Shown here one piece after another: positions 28,566 through 29,484 of a DNA stretch of 39,704 nucleotides. How positions within the stretch are numbered: position 1 is the stretch's first letter; each line of letters opens with the position of its first letter. Location of the stretch: assembly GCA_964388875.1 (NCBI GenBank), contig CAYMCA010000001.1:309-40012 (forward strand), given 5' to 3'. The translations under genes were made by a program, and so were the position numbers. This stretch comes from Candidatus Woesearchaeota archaeon. Lineage in GTDB: Archaea; Nanobdellota; Nanobdellia; Pacearchaeales; GW2011-AR1. A model generated the notes under the pieces. It was not told the DNA's origin. It did no database searches and was given only the letters and a program-made list of their open reading frames with translations.

Positions 28566-28636
28566 AAAGGAGGAAAGTAAAATGGGAATGACTATGCAGC
28601 TTCGCCAAGGCACAAGAGCAAAGGCTTGAGCAGAGA
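28566..28636 (+). repeat. 71 bp direct repeat, copy 1 (SD plus 15-codon uORF MGMTMQLRQGTRAKA ending in TGA)
   Basis: 70/71 identical to 29157-29227. Confidence 0.85.
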
Positions 28637-28677
28637 CTGACGCAGGAGCAGAGGATTAAAACAAAAGGAGGTATACA

Positions 28678-29154
28678 ATGAAACTTAAAATATCACCTAG
28701 CCATATAATAGATTTTGGTGAAAACAACAGAATGCCTCGTTGCACTTTAGAGAAAATTAAGGAAATTCGGAAAATAACAGAACCTAAACATGCATTAAAA
28801 AGCATTGTTGATTTAATTAAGAATTATGTTAAATTGGAAGAGAGGGTTCCAATTCAATACAATCCGAAAACAGGAAAACCAATAAAGTTTGAATGGCGGC
28901 CAGCAGAATATTTTAAATGGGAAATCTATCTCTGCTTGGGGAGTGATGAATGTATAACGCCTGGGCTGTCAGGAGAAGTAATAAAATTTGTAAAGGAAAA
29001 TAGCCCACTGCTTGTTAAAACAAACTTTGGAAAATATATCTTTAGGTATGAAGAGAGGTCTGGATTTTGTGATGAGCAAGGCGGCGGAATTAGCGAGTAT
29101 AAAAAATGCCTTGTTTTAATTGAGAAATTAAAGGAGCTAAAGGGTAAAGAATAA
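28678..29154 (+). CDS. Hypothetical protein (158 aa) bracketed by the 71 bp direct repeats
   Basis: SD aaaggagg. No motif recognised. Confidence 0.55.
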   Translation: MKLKISPSHIIDFGENNRMPRCTLEKIKEIRKITEPKHALKSIVDLIKNYVKLEERVPIQYNPKTGKPIKFEWRPAEYFKWEIYLCLGSDECITPGLSGEVIKFVKENSPLLVKTNFGKYIFRYEERSGFCDEQGGGISEYKKCLVLIEKLKELKGKE

Positions 29155-29156
29155 AA

Positions 29157-29227
29157 AAAGGAGGAAAGTAAAATGGGAATGACTATGCAGCTTCGCCAAG
29201 GCACAAGAACAAAGGCTTGAGCAGAGA
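29157..29227 (+). repeat. 71 bp direct repeat, copy 2
   Basis: 70/71 identical to 28566-28636, offset by 591 bp. Confidence 0.85.
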
Positions 29228-29484
29228 TAGGCATTGAATATGGATTTGAGGAGATAAGCGACTGGAAAAACAAGATAAAGCCTTTTCTTGGCTCCCTGCC
29301 AGATACAACTATTGCAGGCTGTGCTGGTGTTTCAGTTTCAGCTATCAGCGCCCTGCGCAAAAAGCTCAGAAGGCCCAGATACAGGGTTAGCAATGCCCTT
29401 CGCACAGCTTCCTCAACATCCATAGGAAACAGGTACTCTGTTCTTGCAAAGGGAGTATATCACAAAAGTAAAAGAAAGAGGTGA
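29173..29484 (+). other. Reading frame with an in-frame TGA at codon 16; the downstream part is HTH-like
   Basis: After the uORF stop (29218-29220), 87 sense codons continue in frame with no ATG/GTG/TTG start near the beginning. The region contains LPDTTIAGCAGVSVSAISALRKKL. Confidence 0.3.

Follow-up and report, generated by a model that had tools for sequence, protein, structure and literature searches.

Does a tiny open reading frame (ORF) that is led by a Shine-Dalgarno (SD) sequence and ends in TGA, and that stands directly before a longer frame without a start codon, act as a regulatory device, or is it what is left of a damaged gene? The question is raised by a locus in the 39,704-nucleotide stretch of DNA analysed here (the window), which lies on contig CAYMCA010000001.1 (contig 1) of assembly GCA_964388875.1 from a Candidatus Woesearchaeota archaeon. 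In this locus two near-identical copies of a 71-nt sequence flank the gene of a 158-residue (158-aa) orphan protein, and the second copy runs through an in-frame TGA into 87 open codons of helix-turn-helix (HTH)-like character. An earlier note, made from the sequence alone, had offered two explanations, namely that recombination had placed a unit of repeat plus gene, by insertion or duplication, at the HTH-like gene's 5' end, or that the upstream ORF (uORF) and its TGA form a regulatory leader that controls the downstream frame through readthrough or termination-reinitiation. We find that a decayed gene of a zinc-ribbon/HTH family has recently had its 5' end duplicated, so that the copies flank an orphan gene, and that the locus reflects ordinary decay and recombination, not a new regulatory device. 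In detail, positions 29173-29484 probably constitute a decayed family member which has kept its SD, its start codon and about nine N-terminal codons, has lost a core of ~130 codons and carries TGA in place of a Phe codon, its 71-nt 5' end having later been recombined upstream.

Extent and content of the repeat

A repeat search and DNA alignment placed the copies at 28566-28636 (copy 1) and 29157-29227 (copy 2), 591 bp apart from start to start and identical at 70 of 71 positions, the sole mismatch, at repeat position 53, being G at 28618 in copy 1 and A at 29209 in copy 2. Alignment found zero similarity beyond the 71 nt, with abrupt edges on the left and on the right. Each copy contains AAAGGAGG-N8-ATG and then a 15-codon ORF, MGMTMQLRQGTR(A/T)KA-TGA. 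Identity, spacing and the SD with its 15-codon ORF had all been described in the earlier note and were reproduced. The same holds for the copy 1 frame, which closes nine codons past its TGA and is followed by the gene at 28678-29154, and for the frame past the TGA of copy 2, where the note had reported 87 open codons with no start near the beginning and where we found no ATG, GTG or TTG anywhere in the run. Shuffles reached a stop-free run of 87 codons in 0.4% of cases; each of the other two frames holds four stops. In the genome (1.05 Mb, 78 contigs) the full-length 71-mer has only these two copies.

The first 22 nt of the 71-mer, AAAGGAGGAAAGTAAAATGGGA, are a generic SD/start module of contig 1, present exactly at 35166-35187 and nearly matched at several further gene starts of the contig, which leaves 49 nt as the specific repeat. 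These 49 nt did not recur elsewhere in the genome or in the scanned public contig collections, an exact 23-nt pattern of the repeat gave zero matches in the genome-contig and metagenome-contig collections, and a search of a phage DNA collection gave no match.

Homology across the TGA

The mini-ORF, the TGA (entered as W) and the 87 codons were used as one query in an exhaustive phmmer search of 1.84 billion representatives, which returned 310 proteins at E<=1e-3, 16 of them at E<=1e-10. Single-domain matches (75-230 aa) align to query residues ~8-76 at 45-55% identity with a best E of 3e-14, and since their alignments span this range they cross residue 16, which is the TGA; the main class is ~200-220 aa long, while the shorter entries of 75-104 aa may be fragments. 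When compared by hhalign with 34 full-length members, query residues 8-83 aligned with family positions 140-215 over 76 columns (probability 99.8%, E 7.5e-30, 49% identity). The family consensus in this region reads ..Y.SA..HFG.L..AF..IG..Y.F.E...W..KV.PFLG.LPDT.IA...GV.....R.LR..L.I..Y, and the window query reads ...LRQGTRTKA*AEIGIEYGFEEISDWKNKIKPFLGSLPDTTIAGCAGVSVSAISALRKKLRRPRY, the residues around the TGA in the copy 2 frame being ...TRTKA-X-AEIGIEYGFEEISDWK. The TGA stands opposite a conserved Phe of the '..AF..' helix, which is Phe in 63 aligned matches, none of them with a stop, and which lies within helix 141-147 of the AlphaFold (AF2) model of a family member (predicted local distance difference test score, pLDDT, 94; predicted template modelling score, pTM, 0.86).

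The N-terminal side of the mini-ORF matches the family as well. Residues 1-9 (MGMTMQLRQ) resemble family N-termini such as MIGLGLSQSLRQ... or MLAIGQRLRQ..., with a mean best score of 15.2 against 9.1 +/- 1.5 for shuffles, a value reached by 1 of 1000 shuffles and by none of 803 other N-termini of the genome. Residues 10-15 then match family positions ~139-144, and the query jumps from residue 9 to family position ~139. The zinc-ribbon core of ~130 residues is gone, including the four Cys of CxxC...CxxC and a fifth invariant Cys. As the homology runs from the mini-ORF through the TGA into the open frame, it points to one gene with an internal deletion and a premature TGA. Thus the 15-codon 'uORF' is the N-terminus of the same gene up to a premature stop, and the 87-codon frame is its remainder.

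What remains of the gene keeps the family motifs G, AF, IG.Y.F.E, W..K..PFLG.LPDT.IA and R..R..L..RY, and ends in a C-terminal tail that is longer than that of the family and non-homologous to it. The 87-codon frame has gene-like codon usage, scoring 0.207 where genes have a median of 0.243 and the 99th percentile of off-frame sequence is 0.145, and it occupies a 337-nt gap that would otherwise be anomalous. The read-through protein gave no matches when 5.8 billion proteins were searched by word index, and neither the 87-codon frame nor the 158-aa protein gave anything usable against Pfam, PHROGs and NCBIfam; the relatives of the decayed gene thus escaped the word-indexed search and were exposed only by the exhaustive profile search. 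The proposal that the 158-aa protein is the missing zinc-ribbon core was rejected (hhalign probability 0.2%), and a family-profile match reaching upstream of copy 2 in a six-frame search was a spurious extension.

The family itself is unnamed. Its members are ~205 aa long, with an N-terminus of the form M.G[LM]G[LM]S..LRQ..QRL, a four-Cys zinc ribbon and a C-terminal helical domain of HTH type; the N-terminus is rich in Q and L, with QRL repeats. The family is found mainly in bacteria of the candidate phyla radiation (CPR; 310 phmmer matches), and intact homologues of 203-212 aa with ordinary starts are present in two metagenome-assembled genomes (MAGs) of Saccharibacteria, where one copy is partly N-masked, and in one Patescibacteria, one Wolfebacteria and one Gammaproteobacteria MAG. 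No match to the family was found in Pfam, NCBIfam or PDB sequences, and when its confident AF2 model was compared with the PDB by Foldseek nothing significant emerged (best E 0.035, template modelling score < 0.2). A family that folds confidently and yet carries no annotation is worth more than the repeat itself. The second class of matches consists of proteins with 4-9 tandem copies of a ~40-residue module, W..K..LG..PD..IA..GVS...R..L, and the weak matches of these relatives to many HTH Pfam families lend support to the label 'HTH-like', which the frame had been given earlier.

Six-frame searches of 61 relatives and of 401 genomes of the order, made with the frame and with the family profile, gave chance-level or self matches only. 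The window genome has a single copy of the family, and no other member was found among 400 genomes of its order. This copy resembles the family over the C-terminal ~76 residues, at 46-55% identity, but lacks the four zinc-ribbon Cys and has an in-frame TGA. A fragment of a CPR-typical family is thus located on a contig binned with a DPANN archaeon.

These comparisons also bear on the leader, the second explanation of the earlier note, which did not withstand them: homologues of the frame are ~205 aa long, begin at ordinary starts and have no uORF, a finding that the note itself had named as refuting. A related reading holds that the 71-nt unit is a selected portable leader, in which a strong SD and a regulatory uORF tune two different genes by termination-reinitiation or coupling. 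Both copies have indeed kept the SD, the ATG and the TGA, their first 22 nt also serve other gene starts of contig 1, and other adjacent gene pairs have SD plus first-codon modules in common. In contrast, however, the 'uORF' is homologous to the family N-terminus and to residues ~139-144, the homology extends past the TGA, and family members elsewhere are without such a leader. Moreover, the 158-aa gene has an SD of its own, 48 nt past the copy 1 stop, no start codon is available in frame after copy 2 for reinitiation, the 49-nt specific part is unique to these two sites in the genome and the scanned contig collections, and the locus showed no stable fold and no match to Rfam at gathering or permissive thresholds. 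We therefore regard a selected leader as highly improbable. The annotation is thereby corrected, and the case serves as a caution, since an HTH-like frame with no start codon, preceded by a very small SD-led ORF, had mimicked a recoding or leader device.

Support from independent assemblies

A contig of a different MAG in NCBI (JACPBA010000119.1, Candidatus Pacearchaeota; here L007) runs from the 3' half of the 158-aa gene through copy 2 and its TGA into the frame at 99.9% identity. Three Logan contigs cover further parts of the locus. One (L008, run SRR12113385) corresponds to window positions 26927-28617, leading from the upstream genes into copy 1 and ending on the last base before the G/A mismatch; another from the same run (L009) begins 30 nt (k-1) ahead of the A variant; and a third (L010, run SRR12113431) begins at base 1 of copy 2. 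With breakpoints at the mismatch and at the repeat edge, these contigs show the de Bruijn forks expected from a true repeat with one variant. Independent assemblies thus reproduce two of the three junctions. Scaffold gaps bound the window, where Ns occur only at its ends, and none lies near the repeat.

The duplication might instead be an assembly artefact, or a chimera of coexisting haplotypes joined through the shared 71-mer. Several haplotypes of the locus are present in the sample, L007 being different upstream of 28916; the join between copy 1 and the 158-aa gene was recovered in one assembly only; and look-ups of the 158-aa product, full or partial, in other assemblies came back empty. 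Against this, the two copies differ by one base and the Logan contigs of two runs break precisely there and at the repeat edge, two junctions were recovered in independent assemblies with no scaffold gap close by, and the unique 41-nt spacer after copy 1 and the 5' half of the gene must derive from real reads joined to the G variant. A repeat of 71 nt is shorter than ordinary Illumina reads and the top k-mers and is hence normally spanned. Taken together, there is very little to recommend an artefact, and we proceed with a genuine duplication of the 5' end of the decayed gene.

Copy order and recombination

Family homology crosses the right edge of copy 2, which falls between AE and IGIEY in …KA*AEIGIEY…, whereas copy 1 turns at this point into the unrelated 41-nt spacer. 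As the homology continues only past copy 2, this copy is native and copy 1 is secondary, which upholds the first explanation of the earlier note, in which a repeat-plus-gene unit comes to lie at the HTH-like gene's 5' end through insertion or duplication by recombination. The presence of the TGA in both copies indicates that the nonsense change is older than the duplication, unless gene conversion has homogenised the copies, and a single mismatch in 71 nt indicates that the duplication is recent. After the TGA arose, recombination would have copied the first 71 nt of the gene, which begin with the SD and end 7 nt beyond the TGA, to a position 591 bp upstream, an outcome that would be equivalent to the insertion of the 158-aa gene with one copy of the repeat at the 5' end of the decayed gene. 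Two candidate mechanisms can be envisaged. In the first, a fragment that bore the 71-mer together with the 158-aa gene, and that was either small and circular or a strain variant, would have integrated by a single crossover; in the second, an unequal exchange would have made use of the shared SD module on the left and of a short microhomology, GAGCAGAG, on the right. This short sequence is present again 11 nt beyond the end of copy 1 and may represent junction microhomology. Both the order of events and the mechanism are reconstructed from the present arrangement of the locus and should be read as probable. Copy 1 is likely to yield at most a 15-aa peptide from its mini-ORF, and beyond the TGA of copy 2 the remnant is presumably translated barely or not at all.

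The arrangement might also have arisen by replacement, with two decayed genes once in tandem and the body of the upstream one later swapped for the 158-aa gene, leaving its first 71 nt. Tandem paralogues with conserved 5' ends do exist in the window (at 9240 and 9484), and the end state would be the same as that of an insertion in the data at hand. However, replacement needs two events instead of one, and although the copies are 99% identical, nothing past the 71 nt survives, which makes it decidedly unlikely. Insertion or duplication at the 5' end of the decayed gene remains the reading that we follow.

The region varies between strains and is recombinogenic, a conclusion that draws on the following observations. 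From 28916 onwards L007 matches the window, at 99% over the 3' half of the 158-aa gene, and upstream of this point (L007:1-204, compared with 28678-28915) it carries a different, in-frame open 5' half, that is, a mosaic allele of the 158-aa gene. L007 is also without the 101 nt at 30492-30592, which alters the C-terminus of a 174-aa gene to give 183 aa. A DNA search of two same-genus MAGs (66-69% complete) with positions 26900-31500 found no orthologous locus. Finally, adjacent gene pairs of contig 1 have modules of 40-53 nt in common, comprising the SD, the start and the first codons, which are 77-90% identical while the gene bodies differ (Table 1); the pair at 9240 and 9484 consists of tandem paralogues with two transmembrane segments. 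These shared modules suggest recurrent duplication or conversion at gene 5' ends of the contig. In this variable region of an uncultivated DPANN genome, recombination thus copies the 5' ends of genes, with SD and first codons, and builds mosaic genes.

Several observations weigh against decay followed by duplication. Apart from the deletion and the one TGA the remnant is clean, with no frameshift or second stop in the 87 codons and with family motifs intact, which would mean that decay is very recent or that the product is still made. All copies at hand (window, L007, L009 and L010) are near-identical and offer no divergence by which relaxed selection could be gauged. No haplotype without the insertion was found among the contigs and MAGs compared, and the junction of copy 1 with the 158-aa gene is present solely in the window's own assembly. 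Two further genes of the genome, among them its single alaS, have one in-frame TGA within a conserved domain, as leaky decoding of UGA would permit.

Decoding of the TGA

The long plus-strand ORFs of the window terminate in TAA in 26 cases, TGA in 16 and TAG in 12 (n=54), with several ATGA/GTGA start-stop overlaps. As TGA ends 16 of 54 long ORFs it is a normal stop here, and the code is the standard one. Across the genome, same-frame neighbours split by one stop number 94 for TAA, 40 for TAG and 48 for TGA, which approximates stop usage, the odd cases being mostly antisense noise. A code with TGA as Trp or Gly (tables 4 and 25) was rejected, since TGA terminates genes and the counts of same-frame neighbours follow stop usage. 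The best genome match to tRNA-Sec (RF01852) scored 30.7 bits, below the 47-bit cut-off, and all matches were ordinary tRNAs; ARAGORN in intron mode made two 'SeC' calls, of which one resolves in the Rfam alignment to an intron-containing tRNA(UCC) and the other matches no tRNA. No true opal-suppressor tRNA(UCA) was found in the genome, and shuffled sequences fold as well as the RNA downstream of the TGA (z = 0.04). Selenocysteine at 29218-29220 was rejected, there being no tRNA-Sec and the homologues having Phe, neither Cys nor a stop. Nothing specific was found in the literature on Pacearchaeota and readthrough. Genome-wide recoding of TGA is thus absent.

Only three genes were confirmed to carry an in-frame TGA, namely the remnant in the window, a RaSEA-like radical SAM gene and alaS. 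The RaSEA-like gene (9683-10822) has one in-frame TGA at 10082-10084 (residue 134) and matches TIGR01210 in a single stretch from 82 to 377 (E 2.8e-30); its orthologue from the same genus, 77% identical, is intact and has Gln at the site. The sole alaS of the genome, for alanyl-tRNA synthetase (AlaRS), lies on contig 25 (C25:10775-12550, L040) and has an in-frame TGA at residue 213, contig position 11411, PF01411 matching in a single stretch from 10 to 435. All 12 relatives compared have an intact AlaRS, the closest being 91% identical. The TGA aligns with a Lys/Thr-rich loop, in a patch that reads EIRNNVFMQNNKK*EGKCER against EIWNNVFMQYNKTKSGSFEP in the 91%-identical relative and that has also lost a conserved Trp and a conserved Tyr. 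This patch looks like damage or a consensus problem, and the TGA itself could reflect real decay, tolerated readthrough or a consensus error. An exact-product look-up of the truncated AlaRS ORF returned no record. No comparable case with an in-frame TAA or TAG was confirmed; a TAG candidate on contig 13 (CoaD-like plus a C-terminal region) was not confirmable as a single Pfam domain.

It could be envisaged that near-cognate decoding reads through UGA at a useful rate. Copy 2 would then give rise to a mini HTH protein of 103 residues (15 aa + X + 87 aa), whose level may be kept low by design, and the RaSEA-like protein and AlaRS would be made likewise. Three genes with a single TGA within a conserved domain and frames otherwise intact would fit such an explanation, as would the single-copy state of alaS and a remnant with all family motifs, gene-like codon usage and no second lesion. 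The three TGAs, however, stand opposite unrelated residues (Phe, Gln and the Lys/Thr-rich loop) and therefore show no consistent recoding, and the orthologues of relatives have no stop at these sites. In addition, TGA is an ordinary terminator with ATGA overlaps and same-frame neighbour counts close to stop usage, there is no tRNA-Sec above threshold, no true tRNA(UCA) and no stimulatory fold, and the AlaRS TGA sits inside a locally aberrant patch. Readthrough of this kind is accordingly unlikely. A broader version, in which UGA is leaky or ambiguous, alaS, the RaSEA-like gene and a domain-minimised HTH protein are all still expressed, and the 71-nt module is a functional low-output start cassette moved before new genes, is in our judgement very unlikely. 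The genome nevertheless holds several conserved genes interrupted by a single TGA, including alaS, and should these TGAs prove genuine and be tolerated, UGA leakiness in archaea could be studied in this organism.

Comparison with known systems

With the locus read as a decayed gene and its duplicated 5' end, its resemblance to several known systems can be set out. As in uORF or leader-peptide control, a short SD-led ORF precedes a longer frame, but here the short ORF is the downstream protein's own N-terminus, and there are no alternative RNA structures, no downstream start and no conservation of a leader. As in programmed UGA decoding (selenocysteine, codes 4 and 25, suppressor tRNAs), an in-frame TGA lies in a conserved domain, but no tRNA-Sec or tRNA(UCA) accompanies it, TGA terminates normally, the homologues have Phe and no stimulatory hairpin is present. 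Ordinary pseudogene formation by internal deletion and nonsense mutation, with segmental duplication through homologous or illegitimate recombination, has much in common with the locus: a domain is lost, a stop comes prematurely, and a short, nearly identical direct repeat flanks a gene in a strain-variable region with mosaic alleles and indels; what differs here is that the duplicated piece is exactly the translation-initiation region (TIR) with the first 18 codons.

The attC sites and cassette-junction repeats of integrons are similar in presenting a direct repeat of ~70 nt around one small gene, a one-directional array of orphans and a variable DPANN region. Here, however, the repeat is coding and TIR sequence of a neighbouring gene, without an imperfect palindrome, and the genes abut with only an SD between them, so that an attC site would have no space. 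An attC site was rejected, as there is no inverted repeat in or beside the 71-mer and only 2 nt separate the stop of the 158-aa gene from copy 2. No integrase or recombinase was found among ~20 window ORFs scanned, a scan that was not exhaustive. A transposon target-site duplication (2-15 bp) was likewise rejected, the repeat being 71 nt long and the 520-nt insert having no terminal inverted repeats and no transposase; the insert holds a single ORF with no family match.

Features of the locus and of its contig

The coordinates of the locus and of related features are collected in Table 1. Positions 26900-31500 hold an XRE-type HTH gene, a small membrane protein, the 158-aa orphan, the HTH remnant, a lipoprotein-like gene and further orphans. 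Database look-ups of the 128-aa product of the XRE gene, of the 158-aa product and of two guessed partials of the latter returned no record.

Table 1. Features of the repeat locus, of its surroundings and of intact family members (window positions unless a locus prefix is given)
Feature	Position	Strand	Remarks
Repeat copy 1	28566..28636	+	Secondary copy of the decayed gene's 5' end: SD, ATG, 15 codons, TGA, 2.3 codons; diverges fully after GCAGAGA
Mini-ORF of copy 1, MGMTMQLRQGTRAKA + TGA	28582..28629	+	
41-nt spacer, copy 1 only	28637..28677	+	Holds the 158-aa gene's own SD (AAAAGGAGGTATACA-ATG); read from sequence
Orphan 158-aa gene	28678..29154	+	No family match; gene-like codon usage; flanked by both repeat copies
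Repeat copy 2	29157..29227	+	Native 5' end of the decayed zinc-ribbon/HTH-family gene; also in L007, L009 and L010
N-terminal 15 codons of the decayed gene with premature TGA (29218-29220)	29173..29220	+	
Remaining 87 codons of the decayed gene with stop	29221..29484	+	C-terminal helical/HTH domain; start codon absent
Upstream neighbour, gene of a 69-aa membrane protein with two transmembrane segments	28343..28552	+	
Downstream neighbour, 172-aa lipoprotein-like gene (MARITFCFCLAACLLAGC...)	29492..30010	+	Start 7 nt past the decayed gene's stop
Shared-module pair	9216-9255/9460-9499		
Shared-module pair	17045-17097/17462-17514		
Shared-module pair	18572-18617/18883-18928		
Intact family locus	L025:5569-6192		207-aa ORF, Saccharibacteria MAG
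Intact family locus	L026:5560-6198		
Intact family locus	L027:5563-6174		
Intact family locus	L029:5539-6168		

The host is a DPANN archaeon with a small genome, its relatives having genomes of 0.4-1.4 Mb, and its best AlaRS matches are named Pacearchaeota or Woesearchaeota. The genes of the window, nearly all on the plus strand, include an ABC transporter, an AAA ATPase, a serpin-like protein, a JAB/ThiF cassette and a VIT-VWA protein, a content by which a phage origin of the window was rejected.

A tRNA-like gene lies ~3.8 kb past the window end (C1:43782-43854, L022:83-152), with an Rfam tRNA score of 46 bits and an encoded CCA; its anticodon loop has 6 nt (TGCCCA), and no anticodon was assignable by ARAGORN.

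Contig 1, of which the window covers positions C1:309-40012, is an outlier in its bin and has a GGAGG-type SD before 52% of its long ORFs, as against 0-25% on the other 21 large contigs. It may have been mis-binned, or may represent a foreign island or an extrachromosomal element. Together with the TGA-interrupted alaS, this SD-rich contig is worth more than the repeat itself. Of its 56 long ORFs 45 lie on one strand, and in tetranucleotide profile it is unremarkable. Pilin-like leaders of the form GFAWIELLVVIAIISIL, which resemble bacterial type IV pilins, are also present on it.

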